A DNA stretch of 64,000 nt from an uncultured Candidatus Saccharibacteria bacterium (GCA_964576615.1 CAZNUU010000004.1:4663-68662), one strand, 5' to 3'; counted from the stretch's first letter, positions 23,495 through 52,258 are shown. Notes: generated by a model not told the origin, from the sequence alone. Made by a program: numbers and translations.

Positions 23495-23525
23495 GGAGCC
23501 GCACCCTCTGGTGCGGCTCCGTTTT
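23495..23525. terminator. Bidirectional GC-rich hairpin terminator. Its stem sequence is shared with the hairpin at 31965-31996.
   Basis: ggagccgcacc-ctctg-gtgcggctcc. It is flanked by T-rich runs on both strands. Confidence 0.6.
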
Positions 23526-23540
23526 GTCTGTCTTGAAGAT

Positions 23541-23888
23541 CTAGGCGCTCGGCTCCGGCTGGTCGGATGACCAGTTCACGTCGGTGCCGTCGGGCTGCCG
23601 GAATGCCGTCACACCTCGGATCGACCTGCACTTGGCCTCGAAATCGAAGCCAAGCTTGTCCTTGGCATAGGCTCGCATTTCTGGCCCCACACCCCCCTCG
23701 ACTTTCAGGCCGTGAGCCGCCTGAAAATCGGCGTTCCGTTTCGAGCCGGTTTCTCCGAACTCACCATCGACAAGGATTCCTTCGCCGAAGCCTCGCTCGA
23801 TCAAAAACTCAAGCCAGGGGTCGACGTGCGGCCCCTTCGAACCCACTTCCATGTATGGCGGTGGGGTAAAGCCATTAATGACAGCCAT
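23541..23888 (-). CDS. GC-rich small protein with a peptidoglycan-binding (PG_binding_1-like) domain (cassette D).
   Basis: A 115-aa protein from the ATG at complement 23886-23888, with AGGAGGT 4 nt upstream. The C-terminal half, ADFQAAHGLKVEGGVGPEMRAYA, resembles a PG-binding domain. The promoter TTGACT-N16-TAATAT lies at 23903-23933 on the minus strand. Confidence 0.55.
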   Translation of the reverse strand: MAVINGFTPPPYMEVGSKGPHVDPWLEFLIERGFGEGILVDGEFGETGSKRNADFQAAHGLKVEGGVGPEMRAYAKDKLGFDFEAKCRSIRGVTAFRQPDGTDVNWSSDQPEPSA

Positions 23889-23953
23889 CGCTACCTCCTG
23901 CGAGCATATTACTTGGGGATGCAATAAAGTCAAATAGATATATAATATTTCTC

Positions 23954-24481
23954 ATGTCAAAAGAATACTCGGTGCATCTTGAAACAAAAAAATATCAAAC
24001 TAAATACAGAACTGAATTTATTACAATCACAAAAGATGTAGAACACGCTATAAAAAGTTCTGGTATAAAAACTGGTACAGTTTTAATTCAAACTTATCAT
24101 ACTACTTGTGGTATTTGGGTAAACGAGGATGAAAAAAATTTAATAGGTCCAAGCGAAGTTTTAGGATACACCTCGGACTTGCGAAAAGTTTTAGATAGGT
24201 TTGCCGATCCCATGCATGACTATGGCCACAATGATGTTAACCATGCCCAAAACCCAAAAGGCAAACGGGATACTCATCTCTGTGAGCCAGATGAAAATGG
24301 GGTAATAAATGAATGTATAAATGGTCATGCTCATGCGCAAGCTCTGATGATCCATCCATCAATTTCTCTTATTGTAGAAGGCGGCAAGATCTTAAAAGGC
24401 AGATGGCAGGAAGTTATGTTAGTTGAGCTGGATCATGATAGGGAAAGGCAGGTGTCATTTCTGGTTAGTGGTATTAAGTAG
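23954..24481 (+). CDS. YjbQ/UPF0047 family protein.
   Basis: The motif TGTVLIQTYHTTCGIWVNEDE is present. The promoter TATAAT at 23940-23945 is very close to the ATG, so the transcript may be leaderless. Confidence 0.65.
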   Translation: MSKEYSVHLETKKYQTKYRTEFITITKDVEHAIKSSGIKTGTVLIQTYHTTCGIWVNEDEKNLIGPSEVLGYTSDLRKVLDRFADPMHDYGHNDVNHAQNPKGKRDTHLCEPDENGVINECINGHAHAQALMIHPSISLIVEGGKILKGRWQEVMLVELDHDRERQVSFLVSGIK

Positions 24482-24672
24482 CATAAATTCTCTTTCTCAT
24501 CATATTTCTCAGAGAGCACGGATATTTTCTTGCTGAAAATCTTCTTACAGAAGCTGTACACCTTTCGCTACTACGTGCTCAAGGTCTTGCGAAGCTTCCC
24601 TTCTCACCTCGTGATTGCGAAAGTGCGCTCCCAAGGCTCTCTTCGAAACATGATTCAACAAGATTTTATGCT
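24478..24672 (+). repeat. Copy 3 of the conserved-core element. It is an expanded variant with a ~100-nt internal insertion, flanked by an imperfect ~37-bp inverted repeat.
   Basis: The start of the core gagcacggatattttcttgctgaaaat lies at 24514. The end of the core gtgcgctcccaagg lies at about 24624-24637. The flanks agcataaattctctttctcatcatatttctcagagag and ctctcttcgaaacatgattcaacaagattttatgct are complementary at about 27 of 37 positions. Confidence 0.55.
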
Positions 24673-24687
24673 AAAATTACCATCATA

Positions 24688-25560
24688 ATGGAAAATGTTC
24701 TTGTTACAGAAAAATCTTCCGATTACGAACTACTAGATAGTGGGGATGAAGAAAAATTAGAAAGATACGGCAGTGTAATTTTATCCCGGCCCGATCCCCA
24801 AGCTATTTGGAAAAAAAATCTTGTCCCAGAGAGATGGCAGGAGGCTAGAGCAATATTTAACAGGAATGGTGCGTCTGGTAAGTGGAAAATAGAAAGAGAA
24901 ACTCCTGATCCTTGGCGGATTCACCTAAATGGTCTCACTTTTAATTTAAAACTTAATCCCTCAAAACATGTTGGTGTTTTTCCAGAACAATCTGCGCATT
25001 GGAAATGGTTGGAAGAGAAAATAAAAAAAGATTTTTCGGGACAAAAACTAAATATCCTGAATCTTTTTGGTCACACTGGTGGAGCATCACTTGCCTGTGC
25101 TCGAGCTGGGGCCAAAGTCACTCACGTTGATAGCTCCAAATTTGTGGTTGATTTTGCCCACAAGAATTTAATTGATTCGGGACTTTATGATAAACCGGTC
25201 AGGTTTATTGTGGATGACTGTCGAAAGTTTGTGGAAAGAGAGATACGGCGCAAGAGCAAGTATGATGTTATTATCCTCGATCCTCCCGTTTATGGTAAAG
25301 GTAAGAAAGGTGAGATCTGGAAAATAGAAAAAGATTTACCAGATTTTGTCCTGAGACTAAAGGGGATTCTTTCAGCAAAGCCAACTGCAATTGTTTTAAA
25401 CGGTTATTCTTCTTCGTATTCAAATATTACCTATGCCCAGATTCTTTCTCCACTAGTCTCGGATCTTGGTGGGGAAGTTTCCTCTGGAGAGCTGGGGATT
25501 AGGGAATCCAGTAGCTCACGCATTCTACCATCGGGTATTTTTGCTCGCTGGGAAAAATAA
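24688..25560 (+). CDS. Class I SAM-dependent RNA methyltransferase (RlmI/RlmK-like catalytic domain).
   Basis: The motifs LNLFGHTGGASLACARAGA, VTHVDSS and VIILDPP are present. Confidence 0.6.
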   Translation: MENVLVTEKSSDYELLDSGDEEKLERYGSVILSRPDPQAIWKKNLVPERWQEARAIFNRNGASGKWKIERETPDPWRIHLNGLTFNLKLNPSKHVGVFPEQSAHWKWLEEKIKKDFSGQKLNILNLFGHTGGASLACARAGAKVTHVDSSKFVVDFAHKNLIDSGLYDKPVRFIVDDCRKFVEREIRRKSKYDVIILDPPVYGKGKKGEIWKIEKDLPDFVLRLKGILSAKPTAIVLNGYSSSYSNITYAQILSPLVSDLGGEVSSGELGIRESSSSRILPSGIFARWEK

Positions 25561-25561
25561 A

Positions 25562-26092
25562 ATGTACGGAATTGATATTTTTGTTCAACGGTATTTATCA
25601 TCGACCCCAACACCATCTTGGGTCGAGTTTTACTATTTAATCACTGGTCTTTTTGATTTCTCACTAGCATTTATTCTTGTTTCGATCCTGGTTTCATTTT
25701 TAATATATTTGATTAGGGGTGTTCGTTACTCACTTCTTTTTCTGGTAACCGTAATTTCAGGCGGGGTTATTGTATACCTACTCAAAATCTTCTTTAATGT
25801 GCAGCGGCCGCTTCAATCCATAATCACAGCTTTTGGTCCAAGTTTCCCTAGCTATCATGCTACGATCTCAACTATCTTTTTTGTCATGCTTATGTATATT
25901 TTTGACCAGTATTATAAGGGCTTTTGGCGATATCTGTTTAATGCTTTTTGTATTTCTTCTGTAATTCTGGTTGGTTTGAGCCGTCTGTATTTGGGAGTTC
26001 ATTGGCTAAGCGATGTGCTCTTTGGAATATTTTTAGGGATTTTAATAGCTTATTTTGCCGTTATAATTTTTAGAAATGTGCTAAAATATTAA
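25562..26092 (+). CDS. PAP2-family membrane phosphatase (BcrC/UppP-like).
   Basis: The motifs PSYHAT and SRLYLGVHWLSDV are present. The start was chosen at 25562 to avoid overlapping the upstream gene. Confidence 0.55.
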   Translation: MYGIDIFVQRYLSSTPTPSWVEFYYLITGLFDFSLAFILVSILVSFLIYLIRGVRYSLLFLVTVISGGVIVYLLKIFFNVQRPLQSIITAFGPSFPSYHATISTIFFVMLMYIFDQYYKGFWRYLFNAFCISSVILVGLSRLYLGVHWLSDVLFGIFLGILIAYFAVIIFRNVLKY

Positions 26093-26118
26093 GTAAATTA
26101 TTAAGTAACAATATTTAA

Positions 26119-26925: not shown

Positions 26926-26926
26926 A

Positions 26927-26952: not shown

Positions 26953-26953
26953 T

Positions 26954-27001: not shown

Positions 27002-27319
27002 ATGAAGAGAGAAGATTTTTTGGCCGCACTGGCCGATATCATCCAAGACCTTCAAGGTCTGGATTTCGGTCAGAGTCACGAAGATCTGTTTGGCTACGTA
27101 ACTCGGATTCTCCGATCCCGTAGCCTGCTCGCCTGGGAAGATTCCGATGCGGCCCAAGCAGGTCATAACGAGCTTGTGAGGGCTGTCGTCTCGATGTATC
27201 ATCTGCCGTCGGACACTCATCCGGTTGTAACGGCACTGAAGGTTCGGCGACTCGAAGAGAAAGCGTGGAACTATTACCACGACCAGTTCACTTATCATGA
27301 GGTGGTACAGCACGGTTGA
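27002..27319 (+). CDS. GC-rich small cytoplasmic protein of unknown function (cassette E).
   Basis: 105 aa. It has its own promoter, SD and terminator. Confidence 0.5.
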   Translation: MKREDFLAALADIIQDLQGLDFGQSHEDLFGYVTRILRSRSLLAWEDSDAAQAGHNELVRAVVSMYHLPSDTHPVVTALKVRRLEEKAWNYYHDQFTYHEVVQHG

Positions 27320-27326
27320 GATGGTG

Positions 27327-27358
27327 GGGCGACTAGGCAGATGCCGATGTCGCCCTTT
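27327..27358 (+). terminator. GC-rich hairpin followed by a T-run. Its stem is shared with the hairpin at 52228-52258.
   Basis: gggcgac-(15 nt)-gtcgccc, followed by ttt. Confidence 0.55.
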
Positions 27359-27687: not shown

Positions 27688-27698
27688 ACTAGACAAAA

Positions 27699-28244
27699 AT
27701 GTCAAAGCAACAAGTTCGTAGCGAAAGAAACTGGTACGCAATCCACACTTATGCTGGATATGAAAACGCTGTGATGCGAAATCTAAAACAGCGTATAGAA
27801 TCCCTTGGCATGGAGGATAAAATTTTTGATGTGATTGTTCCAACCGAAAGAAAGATAAAAATAAAAGCCGGCAAGCGTGTAGAAGAGGAAGAGAAAATTT
27901 ATCCTGGTTATATTCTTGTGGACATGATTGTAACCGAGGATTCTTGGTATGTGGTTAGAAACACTCCGCGCGTAACTGGCTTCGTGGGCTCTGGGGTTTA
28001 CCCTGTGCCTATAGATAAAAAAGAAATTGATGAACTTTTCTCCCGCATGAATGCCCAGGATGTTAAGCATAAAATTGATCTGTCCCAAAACGATGCTGTG
28101 CGAATAGTGGACGGTCCATTTAAAGATCTTGAAGGAAAAGTAAGCGAAGTGGACGAGGAAAGGGGTAAGGTGAAGGTTTTAGTTGCAATGTTCGGGCGAG
28201 AAACGCCGGTGGAACTGGACTTCCTTCAAGTAAAGAAAATTTAG
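27699..28244 (+). CDS. nusG: Transcription termination/antitermination factor NusG.
   Basis: The NGN domain (WYAIHTYAGYENAV) and the KOW domain (VRIVDGPFKDLEGKV) are present. Confidence 0.9.
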   Translation: MSKQQVRSERNWYAIHTYAGYENAVMRNLKQRIESLGMEDKIFDVIVPTERKIKIKAGKRVEEEEKIYPGYILVDMIVTEDSWYVVRNTPRVTGFVGSGVYPVPIDKKEIDELFSRMNAQDVKHKIDLSQNDAVRIVDGPFKDLEGKVSEVDEERGKVKVLVAMFGRETPVELDFLQVKKI

Positions 28245-28422
28245 AAAATTAAGGAGTGAAACGACTATAATTTACTTAACCCAAGCACCACTTTATTGAT
28301 TTAAAAAAAGAAGTATGATAACTTTCAAGAGCGAAATTATATCGAGAAATGGCACTTACTTGGTGTATAAAGTGGTGCTGGGTAATGATTTTTATAGTCA
28401 CTACGCTCGTTAAAAATCAACC
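28245..28422 (+). promoter_or_regulatory. Structured leader element, copy 1. It has conserved 5' and 3' modules, a covarying long stem and a possible 32-codon uORF. It ends 9 nt upstream of the rplK ATG.
   Basis: The 5' module aaaattaaggagtgaaacgactataatttacttaaccca lies at 28245-28283. The stem arms cccaagcaccacttta at 28280-28296 and aaagtggtgctgggt at 28369-28383 pair. The 3' module tgatttttatagtcactacgctcgttaaaaatcaacc follows. The uORF runs 28315-28413. Confidence 0.55.
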
Positions 28423-28848
28423 ATGGCAAAGAAAGTAGTTAAAAAATTAAGACTTATTCTCACTGCAGGTAAGGCAACTCCTGCTCCTCCAGCTGGCCCT
28501 ATTTTAGGTCAGGCCGGGGTTAATATTGGAGAATTTGTTAAGCAGTTTAATGATGCATCTGCAAAAATGGCAGGGGATTTAACACCTGTTTCTGTTTCTG
28601 TTTACGACGATAGGTCTTTTACTTTCAAACTAAAAACTCCTCCAGCTTCCAATCTAATTTTAAAAGCTGCAAACAAAGATAAAGGTTCCGGTAAAAATAC
28701 AGTTTCAAAGGCAGGTAGTATTACCAAAGCCCAACTAAAAGCAATTGCGGAAAAGAAAATGCCAGACTTGAGTGCGAACGATATTGAAGCCGCAATGAAA
28801 ATTATTGCAGGTAGTGCTCGTTCGATGGGGATTGAGGTTAAGGGATAA
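28423..28848 (+). CDS. rplK: 50S ribosomal protein L11.
   Basis: [35 protein letters not shown] matches L11. Confidence 0.9.
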
Positions 28849-28895: not shown

Positions 28896-28954
28896 TTCTT
28901 GTTTTCGTGATAGTACAAGGTCAGACGTTAACAGTTTTTTGAAAGGAAGAAACG

Positions 28955-29584
28955 ATGTCAGCCAAGAACATTCTGTCCAATGGGATTTGTTTGTCGGACC
29001 GATACATTCCGAACTACGACAAACTCCAAGAAGTACTGAGGGTGATGCGTTCTCTGGGACACACAATTTCGATGACCCAGGGCGTTTACGACCTCATCCA
29101 CCCCGGGCACACCCGGTATCTCGAGAAGGCGAAATCCTTCGGGGATATCTTGGTCGTGGCTGTGGATACGGATGAGTACACCCGACTGCGCAAGCAGAGG
29201 GAAAATGAGCGTCGGCCAGTTGTGCCGTTCGAAGAGAGGCTGGAACTTCTAGCCAACCTGCGCACAGTCGACATACTGACTGTGCGGGACGTAACGGAAC
29301 ACGAGAAGGATCCGACACACGTAATAAAGATCGTACAACCGGATGTTCTCGTCATGTCGCGATCAACGAAGGATGTGGGGAAAGATTGGTACGACGAGCT
29401 TCGCAAACTCTGCGGACGTCTCGAGGTACTCGAGCCGCAGTCAACGGGCTCAACAACCAAACAACTTCGTGATCTCATGATGGACGGGGCTTCTGGACTT
29501 GTCGATCACCTCCGTGAGACGATCGACAATTACTTCAGGGCGGCCGGCCGAGAGGTGACGTTTGGTAAAAGGAGGGATGGATGA
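28955..29584 (+). CDS. Cytidylyltransferase-like (HxGH) nucleotidyltransferase. It is GC-rich.
   Basis: GVYDLIHPGHTRYL ... ILVVAVDTDEYTRLRK ... RPVVPFEERLELLANLRTVD matches the TagD / RfaE-domain-II style nucleotidyltransferase fold. It is the first gene of a GC-rich island. Confidence 0.55.
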   Translation: MSAKNILSNGICLSDRYIPNYDKLQEVLRVMRSLGHTISMTQGVYDLIHPGHTRYLEKAKSFGDILVVAVDTDEYTRLRKQRENERRPVVPFEERLELLANLRTVDILTVRDVTEHEKDPTHVIKIVQPDVLVMSRSTKDVGKDWYDELRKLCGRLEVLEPQSTGSTTKQLRDLMMDGASGLVDHLRETIDNYFRAAGREVTFGKRRDG

Positions 29585-30441
29585 GGGCATTACTCGCCTA
29601 CGTTCCTGTCTTGAACCAACGTCACGTTGATTGGTTCAAGAGACATGAGGAGAGTCCGCTCTACCTCATACCGCAAGAGATGGCGGTGGGTTTCTTACCG
29701 CGACTCTCTCGAAATATTGCGGCTGTTTCTCCCGAGACGACCGCAACATCGATCAGATTCAACGGGTTGATACGAGAGGTGGCAATATTCAATCCCGAAA
29801 ACTGGGATCCGCGTTTGGCAAAAGACAGTGGGTGGAAAGATTGGGTTTTGCCAGACGAGGATATCTCACACGAAGTAGCTGAGAGGTACCTCAAACCGAT
29901 CGGAGCTTCGTGCCTCTTCGAAGAAATCTGGGCACGTTGGGATATGACCGCTGTACAAAAAATGCAGCCGGTCATTCCAGATGTGATAGTCAGCGAGTCC
30001 GAATTTGACCAAGTTCGGATGAGGTTAGCTGAGTGCCGAAAGACAGACAGCCCGGATTGGTGGCGGCAGATTGGTGCGGTATTGTTTGATGCGGGAGGTG
30101 AACCGATTTCATCTGCCTGCAACTTACACATGCCGAACGAATACGAGACGTATATCTTCGGAGATCCACGTCTCAATGTTGATGCCGGTCAGATCGGCAA
30201 GTACACCTCGCTTCACGCCGAGAAGGCTGTCATTGTTTTGGCGGCCAGGCTGGGTCGTCCGACGAACGGCGGATCGATGTATGTCACAGTTTTTCCTTGC
30301 GAGGACTGTGCCAGAGAGATCGCGTTCGCCGGGATTTCCAAAGTGTTCTTTCGTGAAGGGTACTCTGCTCTCAATGCTCGAGAAGTCTTTCGATCATGGG
30401 GAGTGGAAGTGGTCCAAGTCAAAGGCCCCGAGTCCGCGTAA
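29581..30441 (+). CDS. Two-domain protein. The N-terminal domain (~180 aa) is unknown. The C-terminal domain is a CMP/dCMP deaminase zinc-binding domain. It is GC-rich.
   Basis: The C-terminal SLHAEKAVIVLAARLG ... VFPCEDCAREIAFAGI gives the HAE...PCxxC deaminase signature. It overlaps the previous gene in an ATGA arrangement. Confidence 0.55.
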   Translation: MRALLAYVPVLNQRHVDWFKRHEESPLYLIPQEMAVGFLPRLSRNIAAVSPETTATSIRFNGLIREVAIFNPENWDPRLAKDSGWKDWVLPDEDISHEVAERYLKPIGASCLFEEIWARWDMTAVQKMQPVIPDVIVSESEFDQVRMRLAECRKTDSPDWWRQIGAVLFDAGGEPISSACNLHMPNEYETYIFGDPRLNVDAGQIGKYTSLHAEKAVIVLAARLGRPTNGGSMYVTVFPCEDCAREIAFAGISKVFFREGYSALNAREVFRSWGVEVVQVKGPESA

Positions 30442-30457
30442 GCGGCCGGGGCCTTGT

Positions 30458-30913
30458 CTATTTCTTCCAGCCGAGAGTCACCAGAAGACGGTTTTCGGCA
30501 GTCATGTCTTCTGTTTTTTTCTCGCCAACAAGAAAATGAAAGTGCAAGTGGTCTAGAGTGGCGCCTGTATACTCCATGTCCCCTGACCTTGCAAACATAG
30601 AGTACCCAGTTACTCCGAGATGGTCCTCGAGCCAAGCGAGAAGTTCAAAAAGTTCCACTATCTCTCTCGTGTCTAGCTCGCTAGCTCTCTTCATGTGCCT
30701 CTTTGGCACGAGCAAGTAATGGTGAACACTCCCCAGGTAGGGGAAGTTGTTGGGACAGACGTACCACCACTCCGTTTCATGGATAGTGGTCGGGAGTGTC
30801 TGCTCTTCTTCCGATCCACCTCGACAGAAGTAGCAGATACCAGCGTCAATCAATTTCTGCATTCTTCTTCTTTGTTCTGGATCACGCGAGTTACTCATAT
30901 TCACTTGAGACAT
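30458..30913 (-). CDS. HIT (histidine triad) family protein. It is GC-rich.
   Basis: The histidine triad LDHLHFHFLVG is present. A CYFC zinc-binding-like motif lies near the N-terminus. Confidence 0.65.
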   Translation of the reverse strand: MSQVNMSNSRDPEQRRRMQKLIDAGICYFCRGGSEEEQTLPTTIHETEWWYVCPNNFPYLGSVHHYLLVPKRHMKRASELDTREIVELFELLAWLEDHLGVTGYSMFARSGDMEYTGATLDHLHFHFLVGEKKTEDMTAENRLLVTLGWKK

Positions 30914-30998
30914 GCGTTATACCTCTTTCGGATTTCTAACATTTTAAATATAAAAAGCAAGTCGCCCCAGAATTTTGGGGCGACTCAGTGCAGAAGGA

Positions 30999-31908
30999 CT
31001 AGACCGTGACCGGGATGTCGTTCATCACTTCTCCCGGGTGATACTCACGCAGCTCGAAGTGATTGGGTCGAAAATCGAACAGGTCACTGACCCTCTCTCC
31101 TTCTTCGGTGAGATACATCGTCGGAAACTGTCGTGTCTCTCGCTCCACAATTTTCTTTGCAGCTTCCATCTGGTCTTCGTAGATGTGGCTGTTGTGGGTT
31201 GAGTGAACAAACAGGTGCGGCTCGTAACCAAGCACATGTCCGAGCATCATGGTGAGCGCTGCGTACTGGATGGTGTTCGACGGTACGCCGATGGGGAAAT
31301 CGGCAGACCTTTGATCCATACGCAAGCTGAGTCGCTTGTTCATCACGGTGATTTCAATGTCACCGTGACATGGTGCGACGACAACTTTCCTCTTACGGCC
31401 TAAGTGTTGGATCGCGTAGTGTGGAATCCAGGAGGTGATCTTGTGAGTGATCACATCGGGGTAGTCACGAATCTGCTCGATCACTTCTCGGAACTGATTA
31501 AAGGTCCCGCCGTCGGGTGTCGTGTACTGGAACGCGCCGCCATACGAACCCGGACCCATATCGTACGGCTCAAGGTCGAAGTCGGCACATTTCTCTGGTG
31601 TGGCCCATTTCTCCATCCACCAGTTGACTCCCCACTTCTCAGCGAGTTCACGTGCGTCGCGGACACCGTGAATGAAACCGAGAAGCTCGCCGATCGGTTT
31701 TCGCCAGAAGCCCACCTTTCGTTCGGTGAGTACTGGGAAGCCGTTCGAGAGGATGTAACTCATCGGTGCGAGGTCGAGGACAACGTAACGCCCGGTCCTC
31801 TGGAATGGATTCTTGGCGTACTCGCCGCTTGCCAGAATCTGTGCCAGGAAATTCTTGTACTGCGTATCCGGCGTACGAAGGCTATACGGTCGATAATTCG
31901 GATGCATG
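30999..31908 (-). CDS. thyA: Thymidylate synthase (ThyA family). It is GC-rich.
   Basis: The catalytic VVAPCHGDIEI (PCH motif) is present. QRSADFPIGVPSNTIQYAALT retains the Asn equivalent of E. coli N177, indicating dUMP specificity. The start was chosen at the Met preceded by AAAGGA (MHPNYR). Confidence 0.7.
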
Positions 31909-31964
31909 CTAGTCCTTTCAAAAAAGCAGATCTTTTGTGATACTAGCATCTAACTTTTTTAAGT

Positions 31965-31996
31965 CAAAGGAAGAGCCGCACCCACTGGTGCGGCCC
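31965..31996. terminator. GC-rich hairpin between folA and thyA. It shares its stem sequence with the hairpin at 23495-23525.
   Basis: agagccgcacc-cactg-gtgcggccc. Confidence 0.45.
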
Positions 31997-31999
31997 AAG

Positions 32000-32491
32000 T
32001 TATCGTCGGTACTCGACGACATTGAACGAGAATTCGTTCTCTTTGTCAGCATCATGTCGAAAGAGGGAGGAGCCGACGTATTCCCTGGGAATTTCTGGGA
32101 AAAATGTGTCACCTCCCTCGATCTCAGTTTCAACGTGGGTTACGACAAGTCGTTCCACGGCAGAAAGGAAGAGTGAGTAAATCTCTCTTCCACCCATCAC
32201 GAAGACTTCGCGTGTTCTTGAGAGTCTTTGAATCTCAGCGAGATGCAGACCCAACATGGTGTGGCAGCCTGCGGCCCTAAATGTCGGGTCGTTGGTCAGG
32301 ACGATGTTCTCTCTACCAGGTAGGGGTTTGTACGCCGCTGGGATTGACTTGTAGGTTTTTCTGCCCATGACAACCACATGACCCATGGTCGTGTTCTTGA
32401 AGTGATCCATGTCTGCCTTGAGGTGCCAAGGGATGTTGTCTTTCTTGCCAATCACACGATTGGCATCCATTGCCACGATAATACTGAGCAT
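32000..32491 (-). CDS. folA: Dihydrofolate reductase. It is GC-rich.
   Basis: The N-terminus MLSIIVAMDANRVIGKKDNIPWHLKADMDHFKNTTMGHVVVMGRKTY matches DHFR. AAGGAG lies 7 nt upstream of the chosen ATG (complement 32489-32491). Confidence 0.8.
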   Translation of the reverse strand: MLSIIVAMDANRVIGKKDNIPWHLKADMDHFKNTTMGHVVVMGRKTYKSIPAAYKPLPGRENIVLTNDPTFRAAGCHTMLGLHLAEIQRLSRTREVFVMGGREIYSLFLSAVERLVVTHVETEIEGGDTFFPEIPREYVGSSLFRHDADKENEFSFNVVEYRR

Positions 32492-34533: not shown

Positions 34534-37500
34534 ATGGAAAAAGAAGAAAAAAAATTAGGCAAATCAGATGTGGCTTTGAAAGAAGAAGCTATTTTAGAGT
34601 CCTGGCAAAAAAATAGAATATTTGAAAAGACTTTGGAAAAAAATTCCCCGAAGGGTGAGTTTGTTTTTTATGATGGGCCACCTTTTGCCACGGGCTTACC
34701 TCACTACGGTAGTTTACTTGGCTCCATCGCTAAAGATCTTTTTCCGCGTTACAAAACCATGCAAGGCTATTATGTACGCCGTCGCTGGGGCTGGGATTGT
34801 CACGGGCTTCCAATTGAAAATTTGGTGGAAAAGAAATTAGGCCTTAAACACAAAAAAGACATTGAGGTTCTGGGTATAGAGAAATTTAACGAGGAATGTC
34901 GGAGCCAGGTTCTAACTTATGTACACGATTGGAAAAAGTACATTGATCGGGTAGCTCGCTGGGTTGATTTTGATGGCTCCTACAAAACCATGGATGCCAG
35001 TTTTACTGAAAGTGTCTGGTGGGCACTTTCCGAAATGAATGAAAAAGGACTTCTCTACGAAGGTCGTAAGGTCTTACTTTATTGTCCGCACTGCGAAACT
35101 CCTCTGGCCAAGGCCGAGATTGCTATGGATAACTCTTACAAGGACATAACAGAGGAGGCTGTGACAGTAGAATTCAAGCTAAAAGATGACCCTAAGACTT
35201 CTATTCTCGCCTGGACAACAACACCGTGGACTCTCCCAGGTAACGTGGCGTTGGCAGTTCATCCTGATATTGATTACGTAGTAATAGAGAAGAAAGATAT
35301 GGGTGTGGGGGACTTGGTTCGATTTATTCTAGCTAAAAAAAAGCTCGAGGATATTTTTGGTAAAGACGAATATAGGGTTGTTGAAGAAAAAAAAGGAAGG
35401 GATTTAGTTGGCCTTGAATATGAACCTCTCTATGAAATTGAAGCAGTTAAAAAAACAGGTAAAAAAGCTTGGTATGTGACTGGAGCGGATTTTGTTAACA
35501 CGGAAGAGGGAACAGGTGTAGTTCATACAGCTGTAATTTATGGGGAGGACGATTTTAATCTAGGCCAGAAAATTGATTTACCGATGGTGCCCCTACTTTT
35601 GCCAAATGGAAATTTTAACCTGGAGGCACCAGAGTTTATTAGAGGTGTCTATCTAAAAAAAGCAGAGGGTTTGATAAAAGAAGATCTCGAGAAGCGTGGG
35701 CTTTTATTCGATAAGAAAATGAATACCCACTCCTATCCGCATTGTTACAGGTGTGGCACGCCACTCATATACAATGCACTTTCTAGCTGGTTCATTGATG
35801 TTCAGAAGATAAAGGACAAAATAATTTCGACAAACGAAAACATTAATTGGATGCCAGATCACCTGAAACACGGACGTTTTCTAGATATCATGACTAACGC
35901 GCCAGATTGGGCAATAAGCCGAAATCGTTTTTGGGCTTCACCTTTGCCGATTTGGAAAGATAGCCAAGGGAATATAACAGTTGTAAGTGGTTTGGAAGAT
36001 TTGAAAAAGCATCTTAGGAAAACTGGCAATAAATTCTTTTTAATAAGACACGGAGGGTCACTCAGCAATGAAAAAAATGTAAGCAGTTTAGTGCCGGGTG
36101 AAGAAAATGATTGCCTCACGAAAAAAGGCGAAGATCAGGTTAGAAAATCAGCCAAAGAGTTTAAAGACAAGGTTGATTTAATTATTACCTCTAATTTTAG
36201 AAGGACGCAAAAAACAGCCGAAATTTTCGCTGAAGAAAAAGGATTAAGTAAGGAGGATATCGTGGTTGATGATAGCCTGCATGAATTTATTGATGAGGGT
36301 GACCGGGCTGAAAATTATGCAGATGTCAGAAAGAGGATGGTTCATGTTCTCTCGCGTTTAGACAAAGAATATTCGGATAAAAATATTCTGGTCGTTTCTC
36401 ACGAGTATCCATTGCGAGTCCTGCTTTCCTCCCACGAATCTCTCGACGATTTTGAAGAGAGTGAAAACTTTAATAATAAATTTACTTACCTGGATAATGC
36501 CAAAATTACCCCAATAAATTTTATTTCGCTACCCCGAAATATCTTTGCTCAAGTTGATTTTCACCGACCTTATATTGATGAGGTTCAGTTATACAACGAT
36601 ATAGGGGATTCTATATATAGAATTCCGGAGGTAATTGATTGTTGGGTAGAGTCAGGCTCCATGCCTTTTGCAGAATATAATTATCCTTTTGCGCATAAGA
36701 AAGAATTTGAAAAGAGAAGCCCTGCAGATTTTATAGCAGAGTACATACCCCAAACACGTACCTGGTTTTACTATATGCATGTCGTTTCCAACGCTTTGTT
36801 TGGGCATGAAGCATTTAAAAACGTTGTCACGACGGGGAATGTTCTTGCGATAGATGGTAGCAAAATGAGTAAATCAAAAAATAATTATACCGATCCGCTT
36901 ATATTAATGGATAAATTTGGCGCAGATTCGTTACGCTACTATTTGACGACCAGTGTAGTGATGCAAGCAGAAGATTTGGCTTTTTCGGATAAGGATGTGC
37001 AAGAAATTCACCAGAGGCTTCTAAATATTTTGAGAAATGTTGCGGTATTTTACGAGACTTATAAAAGTGATTCAGAGCCAAAATTAAATCACGAGAATGT
37101 TTTAGACAAATGGATATCTATGCGCCTCAAACAATTGAGGGATGAAACCACGGTAAATTTAGATAGATTTGATTCAATCCGAGCTGGCAGACCGCTTAAG
37201 CAGCTTGTGGATGATTTGTCTACTTGGTATTTGAGAAGATCTAGAGAGCGTTTAAAGATGGGCGGAGAAGAGGGGGAGAAAGCACTCCAGCATTTAGCCT
37301 TTATTCTCGGGGAGCTATCAAAGCTTATTGCACCGTTTGTGCCGTATGTTGCTGAGGAAATTTACCAGAAAGTTAAAGGCAAAAGAGGCCTACAAAGTGT
37401 GCATTTAGAAAGTTGGCCAGAAATGAGGGATGTAAATGTTGAACCAGATTTTCTAGCTATCATGTCTAATACCAGAGAAATAGTAACTCAAGCTCTCGAG

Positions 37501-37914
37501 TTAAGGCAGGAGGCTAATATAAAGGTGCGTCAACCCCTGGCGTCACTCACTATTCCTGAGAGTTTGCCAAAAGAGTTTTTGGAAATTTTACGAGATGAAG
37601 TTAATGTCAAAGAGGTAAAAGTTGGTGGTGATTTAAATCTTGATACTAATTTAACCCCCGAACTTCTCGCGGAGGGGCTGGTACGGGATGTTATAAGAGG
37701 GATTCAAGATGTGAGAAAAACAGAAGGTTTAAATCCAAATCAAAAGATAAAGATAGTTGCTCATGCCGATAAGGAGTTAGAAAAAATGATTAATTCAAAT
37801 TTAAGCCAAATTAAACAGCCGACTCAGGTATCTGGCGTTTCTTTCTCGAGAGAAGAACAAAAACATAAAATTGCACTTGAAAAAAACAAACTCTCTGTTT
37901 CAATAGAGAAGTAA
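34534..37914 (+). CDS. ileS: Isoleucine--tRNA ligase with an inserted histidine-phosphatase (PGAM-like) domain.
   Basis: The HIGH-class motif PHYGS and the KMSKS motif are present. WAISRNRFWASPLPIW is present. The insert between that and DCWVESGSMPFA carries FLIRHGGSLSNEKN and VVSHEYPLRVLL, which are the RHG and SH motifs of histidine phosphatases. Confidence 0.85.
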   Translation: MEKEEKKLGKSDVALKEEAILESWQKNRIFEKTLEKNSPKGEFVFYDGPPFATGLPHYGSLLGSIAKDLFPRYKTMQGYYVRRRWGWDCHGLPIENLVEKKLGLKHKKDIEVLGIEKFNEECRSQVLTYVHDWKKYIDRVARWVDFDGSYKTMDASFTESVWWALSEMNEKGLLYEGRKVLLYCPHCETPLAKAEIAMDNSYKDITEEAVTVEFKLKDDPKTSILAWTTTPWTLPGNVALAVHPDIDYVVIEKKDMGVGDLVRFILAKKKLEDIFGKDEYRVVEEKKGRDLVGLEYEPLYEIEAVKKTGKKAWYVTGADFVNTEEGTGVVHTAVIYGEDDFNLGQKIDLPMVPLLLPNGNFNLEAPEFIRGVYLKKAEGLIKEDLEKRGLLFDKKMNTHSYPHCYRCGTPLIYNALSSWFIDVQKIKDKIISTNENINWMPDHLKHGRFLDIMTNAPDWAISRNRFWASPLPIWKDSQGNITVVSGLEDLKKHLRKTGNKFFLIRHGGSLSNEKNVSSLVPGEENDCLTKKGEDQVRKSAKEFKDKVDLIITSNFRRTQKTAEIFAEEKGLSKEDIVVDDSLHEFIDEGDRAENYADVRKRMVHVLSRLDKEYSDKNILVVSHEYPLRVLLSSHESLDDFEESENFNNKFTYLDNAKITPINFISLPRNIFAQVDFHRPYIDEVQLYNDIGDSIYRIPEVIDCWVESGSMPFAEYNYPFAHKKEFEKRSPADFIAEYIPQTRTWFYYMHVVSNALFGHEAFKNVVTTGNVLAIDGSKMSKSKNNYTDPLILMDKFGADSLRYYLTTSVVMQAEDLAFSDKDVQEIHQRLLNILRNVAVFYETYKSDSEPKLNHENVLDKWISMRLKQLRDETTVNLDRFDSIRAGRPLKQLVDDLSTWYLRRSRERLKMGGEEGEKALQHLAFILGELSKLIAPFVPYVAEEIYQKVKGKRGLQSVHLESWPEMRDVNVEPDFLAIMSNTREIVTQALELRQEANIKVRQPLASLTIPESLPKEFLEILRDEVNVKEVKVGGDLNLDTNLTPELLAEGLVRDVIRGIQDVRKTEGLNPNQKIKIVAHADKELEKMINSNLSQIKQPTQVSGVSFSREEQKHKIALEKNKLSVSIEK

Positions 37915-46979: not shown

Positions 46980-49900
46980 ATGATCGGCGATGCAGTAAAA
47001 AGAATAGTGAGAAAAGAATTTCCTACTGGAAAAACTGTTTTTTCTTCACTCTTAATTTCTCTGTTAGCCCTCTCGCCCCTGCCACTTTTTGCCTCTACTT
47101 ATCAAACTTTAGCCTACCAAGACGTACACAAAGACAGATACCTATTTGCCTTTAATTTGATTTCAAGTGTTCAGAATTCTCTTGCGAATTTAAGTGATGG
47201 CCAGATAGGAAGTAAGTTTTCAGATGAGGAAAATCAGTTAATTTCAGCGAGCCAGCAGAACGCAGATAAGTTAGGAGAATTAATTAATGAAAAAATAGAT
47301 TACTTGGGTTATTCAATAAACCAGGGTTCAGCAGATTTGGTGTACCAAGGAGAATTATTTTTTGAATATATTTTTGGTTTATCTTTGAATAATAATCCAA
47401 GCGGTAATTATAATTTCAAATCACCGATAAGTGGAGGAGTGTCTTTGAGCAATCTTTTTGAAGGCAAAGTGATTTCAAAGTTTAGAAATTTATTTGGTAA
47501 TGGGATCAATTTTCCAAAAGTTGCTGAAGCAAAAAAAATAGTAGAAAAGAAATCGGAACAGATTTCAGAAAAAACGAAAGCTGCCGAAGTTGCAGTTTCA
47601 AATAAACCAGAGCCAAAAGTTTTGGCTGCAAATATTTCTGTTCCAACAAGTGCAATAAAAAAAGTTATAAATAATTATTTGGCTCCAACTCCTAAACAGG
47701 ATGCGGCACTTAGTATTTTACCTAACTACGTAACAAAAAAAGATTTAGACAGTCGCTTGAAGTTATTATCTGAAGAATTTATTAAAAAAATATCGGCAAT
47801 TAACATTAATCCCGTAAGTGGTGACGATTTGGCAAACATATACAGGCAGATCGCTCTAACCCAGAGGATAGACCAAATTTCAAATGTAACCATCAATAAT
47901 TCCTACATTAGCAGCGGTAGTGTCGGGGGTGTCTCTGTGACCAACATTGTTTCAAATACTGGCTCAACAAGTATCCCGAATCTAGTAGTAAACAACACCT
48001 CTACCTCTACATTTGCCGGGGGGGTAGCTATTACAGGCGGATGTATAAGTGTAAATGGTACATGTGTGGGTGGCGGTGGGGGTAGTGGTACACCCGGAGG
48101 TAGTGATGGCCAGATCCAATTTAACAGTGGAGGGACATCATTCGGAGGGTCGTCCAGTTTGGTCTGGGATAATACTAACTTGAGGCTGGGTGTTGGTACA
48201 ACATCACCATACGCTCCACTTTCAGTTGTGGGGCAAATTGTTGCAGCCTATTTTACGGCAACAACAACATTGGTAAATACATTTCCTTATGCTTCAACCA
48301 CAGCTCTGTCGGTTTCCAGTGGACTGACATTGAATACTTCAACTAATGGTCCACTTCAAGCAGTTGGTGGAATTGTTTCAGCTACCACATCGATTGGTGT
48401 TGCGTACGGTGGTACCGGTTGGGCATCTCTTCAATCAAACGCAGTTCTTCTTGGAAATGGTTCAGGGAAAATTGCAACAACATCAGCTGGTACCGACGGG
48501 CAAGTCTTGGCATTAGTAAACGGGGTACCAACCTGGCAATCGACTACAACACTTTCTACAATTACTGGAACACTTACAGTAGGGAAGGGTGGTACTAATG
48601 CAACATCTTTCTCAGCTAACTCGATTGTGGTTTCTGATGCTGCCGGGACAACTCTAATTGCTACTGGGTCGAAACTAACCATTGGCTCACTCCTTTCTAC
48701 CACAACCGCAACATCCACATTTTCTGGAGCACTAGGAATTGGCACGACATCACCTTGGGCAGTATTTTCTGTTAACCCAACGGGAGGTACAGCAGCTGCA
48801 CAATTTGTAGTTGGATCCTCATCTGCAACAAATCTAATCGTGTTAAACTCGGGATTTGTTGGTATTTCCAGTACAACCCCGACATCTAGATTTGGAGTAA
48901 ACCCTCAAGCCGGAGATATAGTAGCTTTTGCAGTAGGTTCTTCAACTAAATCACTTCTCTCCATCTCGACTGAAGGTTTTGGCACCACAACCCTTGCTGG
49001 TCTTAACGTAAATGCTACAGCCACTTCTACATCAAATGTTGGCTGGAATATAAGTAATGGTTGTTATGCTATTTCTGGAACCTGTCTTTCTCTTTCTAAT
49101 TTGGCTGGAACACTTGCTGTCTCCAAGGGCGGAACAAATGCTACTTCTTTTGCAGCTAACTCCATCATTGTCTCTGATGCTGCTGGCACAACTCTCATTG
49201 CAACAACATCAAACAACTTCACACTCGGATCGTTTATTGCCACCTCCACCACACTTAACTCCTACTCACTTAATAACTGGACAGGTTTTGGCACAAGTAC
49301 GCCGGTATACGAAGTTACAATCTCATCTTCTACAGCGCCCCAGTTAGCTTTATCTGCAGGCTCGGGTATAGCGCAGTGGGTATTTAGAAACGGTGGGGGT
49401 GATCTTTATCTCGCGACTACAACTGTCGCGGGAACTGCTACTACCTCAATCACAGCTCTAACCATATCTGGTAGTGGCTTCGGTACCACAACAATCCGCG
49501 GCCTAACTATTGCTAACGGCCAAGCAACTTCTACCTCCAACGTCGGTTGGTCAATCACAAATGGTTGTTACGCTATAGGTACGACCTGTCTATCACTTTC
49601 ATCACTTACTGGAACACTCGCGGTTGCAAGTGGTGGTACTAACTCGACATCTTTTGCGGCTAACTCGATTATCACATCTGATGCCGCCGGAACTACACTC
49701 ATTGCAACAACATCAAACAACTTCACACTCGGATCATTTATTGCCACCTCCACCACACTTAACTCCTACTCACTTAATAACTGGATTGGTTTTGGTACCA
49801 CAACATCGAAGTACCCCTTAACAATTTCATCTTCGACGGCATCTCAACTTGCTCTCTCAGCTAGCTCTGGTTTTGCTCAGGTGGTGTTTAGAAATGATGG

Positions 49901-50801
49901 CACTAACTTTTACATTGCCACAACCACTACTGCTGGTACAGCTACCACTTCAACTCCGGCGATGCAGATAGCAATATCTACTGGTAATGTTGGTTTTGGT
50001 ACAACAACTTCTCTTGGGCCGCTCACCATGAACTCTGGTGCGTTTGTGACAACAGGAGGTACATGGACAAACGCGTCAGATCGAAACTTGAAGGAAAATT
50101 TTGTGGAGCTAGATATTAACGATATCTTAAACAAGATTATGCAGTTGCCGATAACACAGTGGAATTATAAATCTGAAAATATTAACATTCCTCACATCGG
50201 TCCAGTTGCTCAAGATTTCCATGCAATATTTGGTCTTGGTAATTCTGATACATCAATCTCGACCATTGACCCTGCCGGTGTAGCACTTGTGGGTATAAAA
50301 GCTTTATATAAAAAAATCGAAGACATTGGCAAATATTTTGCAGATAATGTTCTTAAAATAAACAAAGTCTCTACGGAAAACCTTTGTGTAAGTGATGATG
50401 AAGGTGAGACGTGTATCACTAGGGCAGAACTTCTAGCACTTCTTTCAAAATCAAAAGGGCAAAGCAGTAATACTCCTCCTCCAACGGCTTCGACAACTCT
50501 GTCTGTCCCGCAAGACACTTCCGCTCCAGTTATTACTATTTTGGGGGATAACCCAGCACAGATAGTTGTTGGCTCAACTTATTCCGACATGGGTGCCACA
50601 GTTTCTGATACCAACGCAGATGGAAGTGTAAATAATAATCTGGGTCTGCACTACACTGTAAATGGTCTAAGTACAGATTCTGTTTCGATTGATACGGCTA
50701 CTTCATCAAGTCACACCGTCGTATATTCGGCAGTAGATTCGTCAGGAAACTGGGGCTATGCAACTCGAACTGTAGAGGTAAAAGAAGCTGTTGCGCCGTA
50801 A
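46980..50801 (+). CDS. Giant secreted protein (1273 aa) resembling a tail fibre. It has a signal peptide, Thr/Ser/Gly-rich beta repeats, a C-terminal intramolecular-chaperone (peptidase S74-like) module, and a DUF5011-like Ig domain.
   Basis: The signal peptide is FSSLLISLLALSPLPLFAS. A ~170-aa unit is repeated (GTLAVSKGGTNATSFAANSI...). The chaperone-like block is LPITQWNYKSENINIPHIGPVAQDFHAIFG...VALVGIKALYKKIEDI. The C-terminal PVITILGDNPAQIVVGSTYSDMGATVSDTNADGS is DUF5011-like. Confidence 0.6.
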   Translation: MIGDAVKRIVRKEFPTGKTVFSSLLISLLALSPLPLFASTYQTLAYQDVHKDRYLFAFNLISSVQNSLANLSDGQIGSKFSDEENQLISASQQNADKLGELINEKIDYLGYSINQGSADLVYQGELFFEYIFGLSLNNNPSGNYNFKSPISGGVSLSNLFEGKVISKFRNLFGNGINFPKVAEAKKIVEKKSEQISEKTKAAEVAVSNKPEPKVLAANISVPTSAIKKVINNYLAPTPKQDAALSILPNYVTKKDLDSRLKLLSEEFIKKISAININPVSGDDLANIYRQIALTQRIDQISNVTINNSYISSGSVGGVSVTNIVSNTGSTSIPNLVVNNTSTSTFAGGVAITGGCISVNGTCVGGGGGSGTPGGSDGQIQFNSGGTSFGGSSSLVWDNTNLRLGVGTTSPYAPLSVVGQIVAAYFTATTTLVNTFPYASTTALSVSSGLTLNTSTNGPLQAVGGIVSATTSIGVAYGGTGWASLQSNAVLLGNGSGKIATTSAGTDGQVLALVNGVPTWQSTTTLSTITGTLTVGKGGTNATSFSANSIVVSDAAGTTLIATGSKLTIGSLLSTTTATSTFSGALGIGTTSPWAVFSVNPTGGTAAAQFVVGSSSATNLIVLNSGFVGISSTTPTSRFGVNPQAGDIVAFAVGSSTKSLLSISTEGFGTTTLAGLNVNATATSTSNVGWNISNGCYAISGTCLSLSNLAGTLAVSKGGTNATSFAANSIIVSDAAGTTLIATTSNNFTLGSFIATSTTLNSYSLNNWTGFGTSTPVYEVTISSSTAPQLALSAGSGIAQWVFRNGGGDLYLATTTVAGTATTSITALTISGSGFGTTTIRGLTIANGQATSTSNVGWSITNGCYAIGTTCLSLSSLTGTLAVASGGTNSTSFAANSIITSDAAGTTLIATTSNNFTLGSFIATSTTLNSYSLNNWIGFGTTTSKYPLTISSSTASQLALSASSGFAQVVFRNDGTNFYIATTTTAGTATTSTPAMQIAISTGNVGFGTTTSLGPLTMNSGAFVTTGGTWTNASDRNLKENFVELDINDILNKIMQLPITQWNYKSENINIPHIGPVAQDFHAIFGLGNSDTSISTIDPAGVALVGIKALYKKIEDIGKYFADNVLKINKVSTENLCVSDDEGETCITRAELLALLSKSKGQSSNTPPPTASTTLSVPQDTSAPVITILGDNPAQIVVGSTYSDMGATVSDTNADGSVNNNLGLHYTVNGLSTDSVSIDTATSSSHTVVYSAVDSSGNWGYATRTVEVKEAVAP
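48570..49800 (+). repeat. Intragenic tandem repeats with a period of about 510-540 nt. The last two units are almost identical over ~130 nt.
   Basis: The segment at 49141-49270 is near-identical to the segment at 49651-49780 (...tcattgcaacaacatcaaacaacttcacactcggatc...). Mirror ORFs appear on the minus strand at 49064-49252 and 49568-49756. Confidence 0.75.
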
Positions 50802-50826
50802 ATCGTCCTATGGTAGTCTTTTTGGA

Positions 50827-51354
50827 ATGGAAGGGGATTTTAACAAGGAAAAACAAGGCAAAAATGACGAGGTTCTAGTTTATGAAGTCTCGTATATTCT
50901 CCTACCTCATATAAATTCCGGGGATGTTCCAGCAAAAGCGGATTCACTAAAGAACGAAATAATCTCCCTGGGCGGCGAGATTATTTCAGGAGAGAACCCA
51001 GTCCTAATTGAACTGTCTTATCCAATGGTCAAAACCGTTGGTGCTACTCGTAATAAAGTTACATCTGGTTATTTTGGCTGGCTAAAGTTTGAACTAAAAA
51101 GAGGGGAGGAGGCGGGGATATTAAAGGTGAAGAAAATGTTAGATGGCAATAGTGATATTGTTCGATTTCTCCTAATAAACACTGTTAGAGAAAACACACT
51201 GCTTAACGGCAAGATGGTTTTAGTAAATGAGGAGAAAGAAAAGAAATCTCCAGACGAAGAGGTGCCTTATGAAGGCGAAAGTACAGAAGTAGTTGAAGAG
51301 AAAAGTACAACCGAAGATATTGATAAGAGTATTGATGATTTAGTAATTGTTTAG
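50827..51354 (+). CDS. rpsF: 30S ribosomal protein S6, with a C-terminal acidic extension.
   Basis: YEVSYILLPHINSGDVPAKADSLKNEI...LIELSYPM is S6-like. The start was taken at MEGDF, because the longer ORF overlaps the upstream gene. Confidence 0.7.
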   Translation: MEGDFNKEKQGKNDEVLVYEVSYILLPHINSGDVPAKADSLKNEIISLGGEIISGENPVLIELSYPMVKTVGATRNKVTSGYFGWLKFELKRGEEAGILKVKKMLDGNSDIVRFLLINTVRENTLLNGKMVLVNEEKEKKSPDEEVPYEGESTEVVEEKSTTEDIDKSIDDLVIV

Positions 51355-51571
51355 AAAATTAAGGAGTGAAACGACTATAATTTACTTAACCCAGCCCCAC
51401 TTTTGGTAAAAAATGAAACAAAATATAAAACAAACAAATAGTGAAAAAATCTCTAGCGACGCGCGAAGGAATACTTCGGCCCTATTCGGGCCAGCGTCGA
51501 GGAATAGTTTACTAGCAAAAGTGGGGCTGGGTGAAGATTTTTATAATCGCTTCGCTCATTAAAAATCAATC
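51355..51571 (+). promoter_or_regulatory. Structured leader element, copy 2. It has the same 5' and 3' modules as 28245-28422, and a possible 49-codon uORF at 51413-51562. It ends 9 nt upstream of the ssb ATG.
   Basis: The 5' module aaaattaaggagtgaaacgactataatttacttaaccca lies at 51355-51393. The covarying arms cccagccccactttt and aaaagtggggctggg pair. The 3' module agatttttataatcgcttcgctcattaaaaatcaatc follows. Confidence 0.55.
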
Positions 51572-52009
51572 ATGTATTTAAACAAAGCACTGATTATAGG
51601 AAATTTAACTAGGGATCCAGAGATGAGGTCTTTGCCGTCTGGCGTAAAAGTATCGAGCTTTTCGGTGGCCACAAACCGAGTCTGGAAAGATAAAAACGGT
51701 GTTAAACAAGAAAATGTTGATTATCACAACGTGGTTGTCTTTGGAAAACAAGCGGATATTGTTTCGCAATATTTGAAAAAAGGATCTTCGATTTTAGTGG
51801 AAGGACGAATGCAGACTCGCAGTTGGGACGATGCTTCGGGGGTGAAAAAATATAGAACGGAAATAATTGCAGAAAGAATCCAGTTTGGACCAAAGAGGGA
51901 AGGTTCAGGTGGCTACGCTGTGCCAATGCCGGAACATGAAGAAAAAAAGGCAATTGATACGATCGAGTATCCCGAAGAAGAAATTAATCCAGATGATATT
52001 CCATTTTAG
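51572..52009 (+). CDS. ssb: Single-stranded DNA-binding protein.
   Basis: The OB fold NKALIIGNLTRDPEMR is present. The acidic C-terminal tip DDIPF is present. Confidence 0.85.
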   Translation: MYLNKALIIGNLTRDPEMRSLPSGVKVSSFSVATNRVWKDKNGVKQENVDYHNVVVFGKQADIVSQYLKKGSSILVEGRMQTRSWDDASGVKKYRTEIIAERIQFGPKREGSGGYAVPMPEHEEKKAIDTIEYPEEEINPDDIPF

Positions 52010-52019
52010 GTGAAATTTT

Positions 52020-52220
52020 ATGAAACAAGATTATTTTAACGAAAACAATATAAAATACATTGACTACAAAGACGTGGATCTTCTTAAGAAGTTTTTAAAT
52101 CCGCATGCCAGGGTAATGTCTCGTAGACGAACTGGGGTTAGTGCAAAAAATCAAAGACTGTTAGCAAATGCCGTAAAGAGGGCTCGCTTCATGGGCCTAC
52201 TTCCTTTTGTAAGCAGATAA
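52020..52220 (+). CDS. rpsR: 30S ribosomal protein S18.
   Basis: [50 protein letters not shown] matches S18. Confidence 0.85.
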
Positions 52221-52227
52221 TCAAGAT

Positions 52228-52258
52228 AGGAAAGGGGCGACCAGCAAGTCGCCCTCTT
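52228..52258. terminator. Bidirectional GC-rich hairpin. Its stem gggcgac/gtcgccc is shared with the hairpin at 27327-27358.
   Basis: aggggcgac-cagcaa-gtcgccctc. Confidence 0.55.

Follow-up and report, generated by a model that had tools for sequence, protein, structure and literature searches.

Why should two terminator hairpins that close unrelated genes be almost the same in sequence? The question is raised by a stretch of 64,000 nucleotides (nt) from an uncultured Candidatus Saccharibacteria bacterium (GCA_964576615.1, CAZNUU010000004.1:4663-68662), called here the window, in which GC-rich gene units reside among the housekeeping genes of an AT-rich genome. The hairpin at the 3' end of folA (H2) and that at the 3' end of the orphan gene D (H1), 8.5 kb apart, are identical at 22 of 24 bases (92%), and have three of the four loop bases in common. 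The original prediction, made from the sequence alone, had noticed the common stem and most of the loop, and was right in this respect; H2 is placed at 31973-31996, and H1 starts where it had been set, at 23495, and ends at 23520, 5 nt earlier than proposed (23525). We hold it probable, if only just, that the folA terminator was recently copied to the end of D, giving rise to H1, or that the two hairpins have been recently homogenised.

The two hairpins

The features needed to follow the argument are listed below.

23495-23520, both strands: H1, perfect 11-bp GC-rich hairpin, GGAGCCGCACC-CTCT-GGTGCGGCTCC, with loop CTCT; predicted bidirectional terminator between the native 113-aa gene (plus) and orphan gene D (minus)
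23141-23482, plus strand: native AT-rich gene, 113 amino acids (aa), membrane protein; H1 serves its 3' end too
23541-23888, minus strand: gene D, 115 aa, GC 0.59, orphan; Shine-Dalgarno (SD) sequence AGGAGGT, promoter TTGACT-16-TAATAT
31973-31996, minus strand: H2, predicted folA terminator; plus-strand reading GAGCCGCACC-CACT-GGTGCGGCCC
31940-31967, minus strand: thyA promoter, TTGACT-16-TAGTAT with TG, immediately after H2; conserved in the relative L149 (GCA_964366395.1)
32000-32491, minus strand: folA, with SD, promoter and terminator of its own

H1 begins 12 nt past the stop of the 113-aa gene and 20 nt past that of D, and folds at -26.8 kcal/mol on the plus and -25.4 kcal/mol on the minus strand (z about -6). 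H2 starts 3 nt past the folA stop, and the thyA promoter follows at once. On the minus strand, which is the sense strand of folA, H2 reads GGGCCGCACC-AGTG-GGTGCGGCTC and forms 10 pairs, one of them G.U; via this pair folding is stronger than on the plus strand (-20.7 vs -16.5 kcal/mol). The tail, UCUUCCUUUG, is weak as a U-tract.

H1, H2 and the hairpins of genes E, G and thyA, described below, all look like ordinary Rho-independent (intrinsic) terminators. They lie 3-20 nt past the stops of folA, D, E, thyA, G, rpsR and the 113-aa gene, with folding z-scores of -4 to -6, and combine a GC-rich stem of 7-11 bp, a mostly short loop and a T-rich tail; a stem-loop plus T-rich tract is listed for H1 on both strands, for H2 on the minus strand and for the thyA hairpin. 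H1, the G hairpin and a hairpin at 30422 each separate convergent genes, as bidirectional intrinsic terminators do. They depart from intrinsic terminators in general in that two of them are 92% identical despite serving unrelated genes, and in that the U-tracts are weak, that of H2 above all. Within the window the shared stems are not the general terminators of the genome, as had been anticipated, the terminators serving native genes only (28866, 34425 and 62716) being AT-richer and different. The stems do, however, also terminate native genes, since H1 and the G hairpin serve the convergent 113-aa open reading frame (ORF) and rpsR.

Likeness beyond chance

The likeness of H1 and H2 was evaluated against random expectation. 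The pattern GAGCCGCACCCNCTGGTGCGGC occurs in the window at the H1 and H2 sites only (0.00 expected, with none in 100 shuffles), and the word GCCGCACC five times in 64 kb against 0.54 expected, four of the five occurrences being hairpin arms. A 22/24 match was reached in 2 of 3000 simulated sets, each made of 18 random hairpins matched in length and composition (p about 7e-4, over all hairpin pairs). H1/H2 is also the sole significant blastn match among 21 pairwise comparisons of GC-rich units (E=2e-5). Likeness stops at the hairpin and the TTC that follows it; the flanks are dissimilar, reading on the minus strand caaaac/ttc at H1 and aactt/ttc at H2.

The rival view that H1 and H2 are independent GC-rich terminators, which happen to share the stem and three of four loop bases, takes strength from the dissimilar flanks, and from the recurrence of 10-bp GC-rich stems in nature. 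A metagenome scan with free loops gave at least 120 loci, which are unrelated terminators and coding matches; among the matches listed, the H1/H2 stem closes terminators in dozens of unrelated contigs, with varied loops. In IMG/VR, however, three scrambled stems of the same composition gave 4, 4 and 6 matches, and the real stem 4, all unrelated and high-GC. The stem is thus not a universally favoured terminator stem, and its recurrence in metagenomes is the mere base rate for any GC-rich 10-mer stem. Both the simulation and the lineage-specific A:T pair and loop type that H1 has in common with H2 (see below) speak against coincidence, which we consider unlikely. These data support the notion that the likeness is not a chance convergence of generic terminators, as originally predicted for H1/H2; the same claim made for the E/G pair did not hold, that pair being compatible with chance.

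Other searches added no relevant copies. Among GTDB representative genomes, a set that does not include the source genome, GAGCCGCACCCNCTGGTGCGGC gave 18 matches, nearly all within one conserved coding sequence of high-GC Alphaproteobacteria, which by eye, with no domain search run, reads like an ABC-transporter ATPase; the remaining ones also lie in GC-rich sequence, and the loop is CGCT or CCCT in all 18. These matches were dismissed as irrelevant. A metagenome match in contig L137, considered as a folA flank, was discarded since it falls within a coding region. Rfam returned over H2 only a sub-threshold match to sbrA (28 bits, gathering score 45), and a megablast of 15 kb against phage records gave no match.

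An old island and a recent copy

H2 belongs to a GC-rich island, the remaining genes of which are as follows.

28955-29584, plus strand: cytidylyltransferase-like (CTP-transferase) gene, in the plus-strand half of the island (28955-30441); syntenic in L149
29581-30441, plus strand: dCMP-deaminase-like gene, in the same half; syntenic in L149
30422-30455, both strands: predicted bidirectional terminator of the dCMP-deaminase-like gene (plus) and HIT (minus); conserved in L149
30458-30913, minus strand: HIT gene, in the minus-strand half of the island (30458-32491, which also holds folA), with its own SD and the bidirectional terminator 30422-30455
30999-31907, minus strand: thyA, in the same half, with its own SD, promoter and terminator

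The order rplK, cytidylyltransferase, dCMP deaminase, HIT, thyA, folA, argS is the same in L149. Amino-acid identity is 52-68% for the island, 60% for ArgRS and 79% for L11. The GC content of the island is elevated in L149 too, so amelioration has not erased it in either of the two deeply diverged lineages. Four lineages retain the folA promoter and SD, and promoter, SD and terminator of thyA are conserved as well. The folA/thyA island is an old block, inherited vertically. The segment 28423-34235, in which rplK is followed by five nucleotide-metabolism genes and then argS, corresponds to L149 5863-12317, where an extra dUTPase gene is found.

Hairpins occupy the same site after folA in three relatives, with the stems CCGCGC/GCGCGG in L151, CCGCGT/ACGCGG in L150 and TGCGCC/GGCGCA in L149. 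The window stem, CCGCAC/GTGCGG, represents a compensated G:C to A:T change. The same position and related stems in three relatives indicate that H2 is the resident folA terminator, inherited in place from an ancestor common to at least three related lineages. H1 has the derived A:T pair of H2, and agrees with it in the outer pairs and in the 4-nt AGNG loop. Sharing a state specific to the lineage of H2, H1 most likely arose recently, as a copy made within the genome; if the two are related at all, the event would have been recent and internal to this genome.

According to this view, the hairpins would close self-contained GC-elevated units (promoter, SD, ORF, hairpin) set among housekeeping genes, and H1, where the lineage-specific D and a convergent native gene both end, would be a recent copy of the present-day form of H2. 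The copied unit may span about 24-27 nt only. Ordinary homologous gene conversion is unlikely with a unit so short, and a small palindromic module moved by a process of the kind that spreads repetitive extragenic palindromic (REP) sequences, or by template switching, appears more likely. Intergenic modules re-used between native genes elsewhere in the window count in favor of copying. The finding is modest, one clear case, in a tiny genome, of two unrelated genes sharing a duplicated 24-nt terminator palindrome; it bears on how new genes gain regulatory ends, and on whether genomes of the candidate phyla radiation (CPR) hold REP-like mobile palindromes.

Several points weigh against recent copying. 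Just two copies are seen in the 64-kb window, too few to demonstrate a repeat family; no transposase or REP-associated tyrosine transposase (RAYT) gene resides in it; and we know of no mechanism for copying a 24-nt hairpin without flanks. The chance estimate rests on a composition-based null, and the pair had been picked post hoc among many features of the 64-kb sequence. H1 may also be older than D, and be the native terminator of the 113-aa gene.

Alternative origins

A wider alternative is that the hairpins are footprints, left at cassette ends by one donor or one hairpin-dependent mobilisation system (attC-, REP/RAYT- or IS200/IS605-like). Nearly every GC-rich unit is indeed closed by a GC-rich hairpin 3-20 nt past the stop, SD motifs found in all 12 GC-rich genes and absent from native ones mark a distinct class, and the G family is also represented in L148, a GC-rich run of small genes that looks phage-like. 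Yet the island and G are syntenic and of long residence, and H2 descends from an ancestral folA terminator; each of the other units has a different hairpin, and blastn finds no further likeness between units; these are dispersed, in both orientations. No recombinase is found in the window, and the hairpins, 20-34 nt long, have neither attC cores nor the GTAG motif of REPs. We regard this scenario as very unlikely. The cassettes had been thought to have a common origin, or a common mobilisation mechanism; neither idea is supported, given that the island and G are old and syntenic, D and E are orphans, no recombinase is encoded in the window and no similarity between units extends beyond the hairpin. 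What the units share is one hairpin, not a cassette history. A further possibility is that H1 and H2 are kept alike as a sequence-specific RNA element, recognised by one protein or RNase as the two boxB of lambda nut sites are, folA and D being regulated or processed together. Identity limited to the stem-loop, the nearly conserved loop and the maintenance of H2 pairing by a G.U on the transcribed strand would fit; but the folA sites of the relatives differ in sequence, so that no conserved recognition is evident, no Rfam family corresponds to the hairpin, and no candidate binding protein is known. This explanation strikes us as most improbable.

Neither does a known family of mobile or repeated palindromes match. 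REPs and bacterial interspersed mosaic elements (BIMEs), mobilised by Y1 transposases of the RAYT type, resemble H1 and H2 in being short (20-40 nt) GC-rich intergenic palindromes located at 3' ends and copied without flanks, and REP/BIME palindromes often act as terminators or mRNA stabilisers. In contrast, two copies are present in the 64-kb window, with no clustered or inverted arrangement; the window encodes no RAYT, and neither H1 nor H2 has a GTAG-type head on its 5' side. Integron cassettes similarly consist of an ORF followed by a 3' imperfect palindrome, and palindromes can be alike between unrelated cassettes. attC sites, however, are 57-141 nt long, with R''/L''-L'/R' cores, and cassettes are promoterless, lie in one orientation and reside beside intI. 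None of these traits is found here. The hairpins are 24-26 nt long, their flanks, GTTTTGT and ACAAAAC, depart from the RYYYAAC...GTTRRRY core, no integrase is encoded in the window, and the units are spread over 50 kb on both strands. Inverted pairs of DNA uptake sequences in Neisseria, or uptake signal sequences in Haemophilus, also make one short word form both arms of terminators at unlinked loci, but uptake words occur about once per kb genome-wide, and GCCGCACC five times in 64 kb. Readings as integron attC, miniature inverted-repeat transposable element (MITE) or diversity-generating retroelement were rejected in the absence of cores, inverted or direct flanks, similarity of the template repeat/variable repeat kind, or a recombinase. 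The idea that H1 and H2 delimit an 8.5-kb element as att-like direct repeats was discarded because the interval contains secE, nusG and rplK, and an origin of D or E by duplication of island DNA because no DNA or tblastx similarity was found beyond the hairpin.

Two classes of genes

Twelve genes stand out for GC content at third codon positions, 0.53-0.72 against 0.22-0.40 in native genes. They are located at 516-1202, 10476-10982, 23541-23888, 27002-27319, 28955-32491, 52261-52467 and 53248-53591. An SD-like 5-mer is found at -20 to -4 in all 12, and in none of 48 native genes (Fisher p = 7e-13); the count falls to 10 of 12 if the word AGAGG, chosen post hoc, is set aside. The SDs are mostly AGGAGGT or AAGGAG, 5-7 nt ahead of the ATG. 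Most GC-rich units have a -35/-10 promoter of the TTGACA/TTGACT type, several genes with a consensus TTGACA -35 box, and nearly all units are closed by a GC-rich hairpin. Native genes carry instead TGnTATAAT-like boxes located a few nt upstream of the ATG, and their mRNAs may be leaderless. GC content, promoter type, SD usage and terminator style therefore divide the genes cleanly into two classes. The split between SD-bearing GC-rich and SD-less native genes is a by-product more notable than the hairpin copy itself.

The host is probably a Parcubacteria-type CPR organism lacking uL1, as gathered from the absence of rplA after rplK, the closest named relative of FolA, a Liptonbacteria metagenome-assembled genome, and published data (PMC9297842). 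The subgroup of Parcubacteria lacking uL1 is often devoid of the anti-SD motif (PMC9297842), and the split in SD usage fits this loss. The two classes also offer a concrete set of genes on which to test how translation is initiated in Parcubacteria lacking uL1 and the anti-SD. The GC-rich patches are not assembly chimeras, since independent Logan assemblies of SRR12313479 and SRR12313480 recover the island as well as the D locus; in a base-by-base comparison the island contig shows 100% identity with the window, and the D-locus contigs encode an identical D protein within the same gene order.

The units resemble phage morons (PMC3594210) in having their own SD, a GC content above that of their neighbours, in most cases a promoter and in nearly all a terminator, and D, E, G and the island units sit, as morons do, between conserved genes. 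They differ in that they reside in a cellular chromosome, among housekeeping genes, and in that the island and G have been held in place over deep divergence, lying at the same loci in distant relatives rather than being missing from them or confined to prophages. Persistence of part of a foreign-looking class suggests caution in reading GC-rich islands as recent insertions. One might envisage, in this anti-SD-poor Parcubacterium, a long-lived foreign-style class of genes, GC-rich and equipped with SDs, promoters and hairpins, in which new orphans such as D are domesticated by copies of a resident terminator palindrome, made by REP-like movement or template switching with no need for homology in the flanks. 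CPR genomes would in that case contain terminators that behave as small mobile modules. We deem this extension distinctly unlikely.

The stem shared by genes E and G

Attention had been drawn to a second stem, GGGCGAC/GTCGCCC, common to genes E and G, and this is present, at 27327-27355 and 52235-52254, respectively. The relevant features are the following.

27002-27319, plus strand: gene E, 105 aa, GC 0.52, orphan; TTGACA promoter, SD AGAGGT
27326-27356, plus strand: predicted terminator of gene E, G-GGGCGAC, a 15-nt loop with a small inner stem, GTCGCCC-T
52020-52220, plus strand: rpsR (S18), native, 3' end served by the G hairpin
52261-52467, minus strand: gene G, 68 aa, GC 0.50, downstream of efp
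52234-52255, both strands: predicted bidirectional terminator of rpsR (plus) and G (minus), G-GGGCGAC-CAGCAA-GTCGCCC-T
30960-30985, minus strand: predicted thyA terminator, AGTCGCCCCA-N6-TGGGGCGACT, with the E/G words and the arms in opposite order

The E hairpin folds at -22.3 kcal/mol. E and G hairpins share a 7-8 bp stem only, GGGCGAC/GTCGCCC plus a closing G.U pair, and blastn of E against G gives no match. The significance attributed to the shared stem did not hold up: the stem words give 6 matches against 2.5 expected, 6 being reached in 5 of 100 shuffles, and a 7-mer common to one hairpin pair arises in 32% of arm shuffles, which is near chance. The thyA hairpin is a third user of the same words, overlooked in the original prediction; its arms are reversed, and it therefore cannot be a simple copy of the E/G hairpin. 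An ortholog of it, partly conserved, is found in L149 (AAGTCGTCTC...GAGCCGACTT). Coincidence within a small set of GC-rich stems is the best reading of what E and G have in common.

Among 5.8 billion proteins D and E match only themselves, and neither E nor unit A has phage matches. D shows weak likeness to peptidoglycan-binding/endolysin domains, with a marginal match (E=1e-3) to the peptidoglycan-binding domain of Microbacterium phage endolysins. The G family is very small, a search of 1.8 billion representative proteins yielding 8 distant homologues. The order efp-G-rpsR recurs in two other lineages, making three low-GC lineages in all. The family loci examined include L146 and L148, the latter a phage-like string (GC 0.64) of small overlapping genes with a PD-(D/E)XK protein.

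Other re-used elements and features of the window

The window has 40% GC, 7 tRNAs and genes for large surface proteins. Its housekeeping genes encode PolA, RuvA, S20, L19, SecE, NusG, L11, ArgRS, IleRS, a ProRS-like protein, MetRS, S6, SSB, S18, EF-P, RecA and FtsK. No integrase, transposase or RAYT was found among the window ORFs scanned.

A 13-mer, TTTTTTGAAAGGA, is common to the 5' leaders of the cytidylyltransferase gene (28935-28947, plus) and of thyA (31913-31925, minus), and runs into their SDs. Between efp and recA, the GC-rich segment 53248-53591 (plus) hosts two small ORFs of 62 and 52 aa with an ATGA overlap, a consensus promoter and AGGAGGT; the 52-aa protein has a predicted membrane helix, and neither has family matches. 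The pair could be toxin-antitoxin-like, or a pair of small membrane proteins.

Re-used elements are found beside native genes as well. The 3' trailers of tRNA-Lys and tRNA-Arg(TCT) (5520-5574 and 19688-19742) are 71% identical and end in one terminator hairpin, AATTCCC-loop-GGGAATTTTT, a re-used terminator on native RNA genes. The nusG-rplK (28240-28425) and rpsF-ssb (51350-51574) intergenic regions represent the same element, about 180-220 nt long and folding as a long rod, in two copies that are 78% identical overall. The first 44 nt after the stops are 100% identical, the 57 nt up to the ATG 86% identical, and one stem carries a compensated change (GCACCAC/GTGGTGC vs GCCCCAC/GTGGGGC). The nusG-rplK spacer of L149 is just 44 nt long. 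With no match in Rfam, the element is either MITE-like or a new leader RNA. Another structured element, about 90 nt long and likewise intergenic, has the core GGAGCACGGATATTTTCTTGCTAGAAAATTCCTCGTGCTCGCGCCGTCGCGCTCCCAAG and occurs in four copies, at 4185-4285 (plus), 8810-8912 (minus), 24500-24650 (plus, divergent) and 54960-55065 (minus). It has no Rfam match either, and keeps a constant orientation relative to the flanking genes, one copy residing in the 5' region of recA. An outer stem of about 11 bp with several compensatory changes encloses two inner hairpins.

Among the coding regions, IleRS (34534-37914, plus) carries an inserted histidine-phosphatase (His_Phos_1) domain, an architecture found also in L149. 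The segment 46980-50801 encodes a 1273-aa surface protein that includes a Peptidase_S74 (endosialidase chaperone) domain and is internally repetitive, the repeats measuring about 504 nt, and a glycine-rich ORF, 62851-64000, runs past the end of the window.

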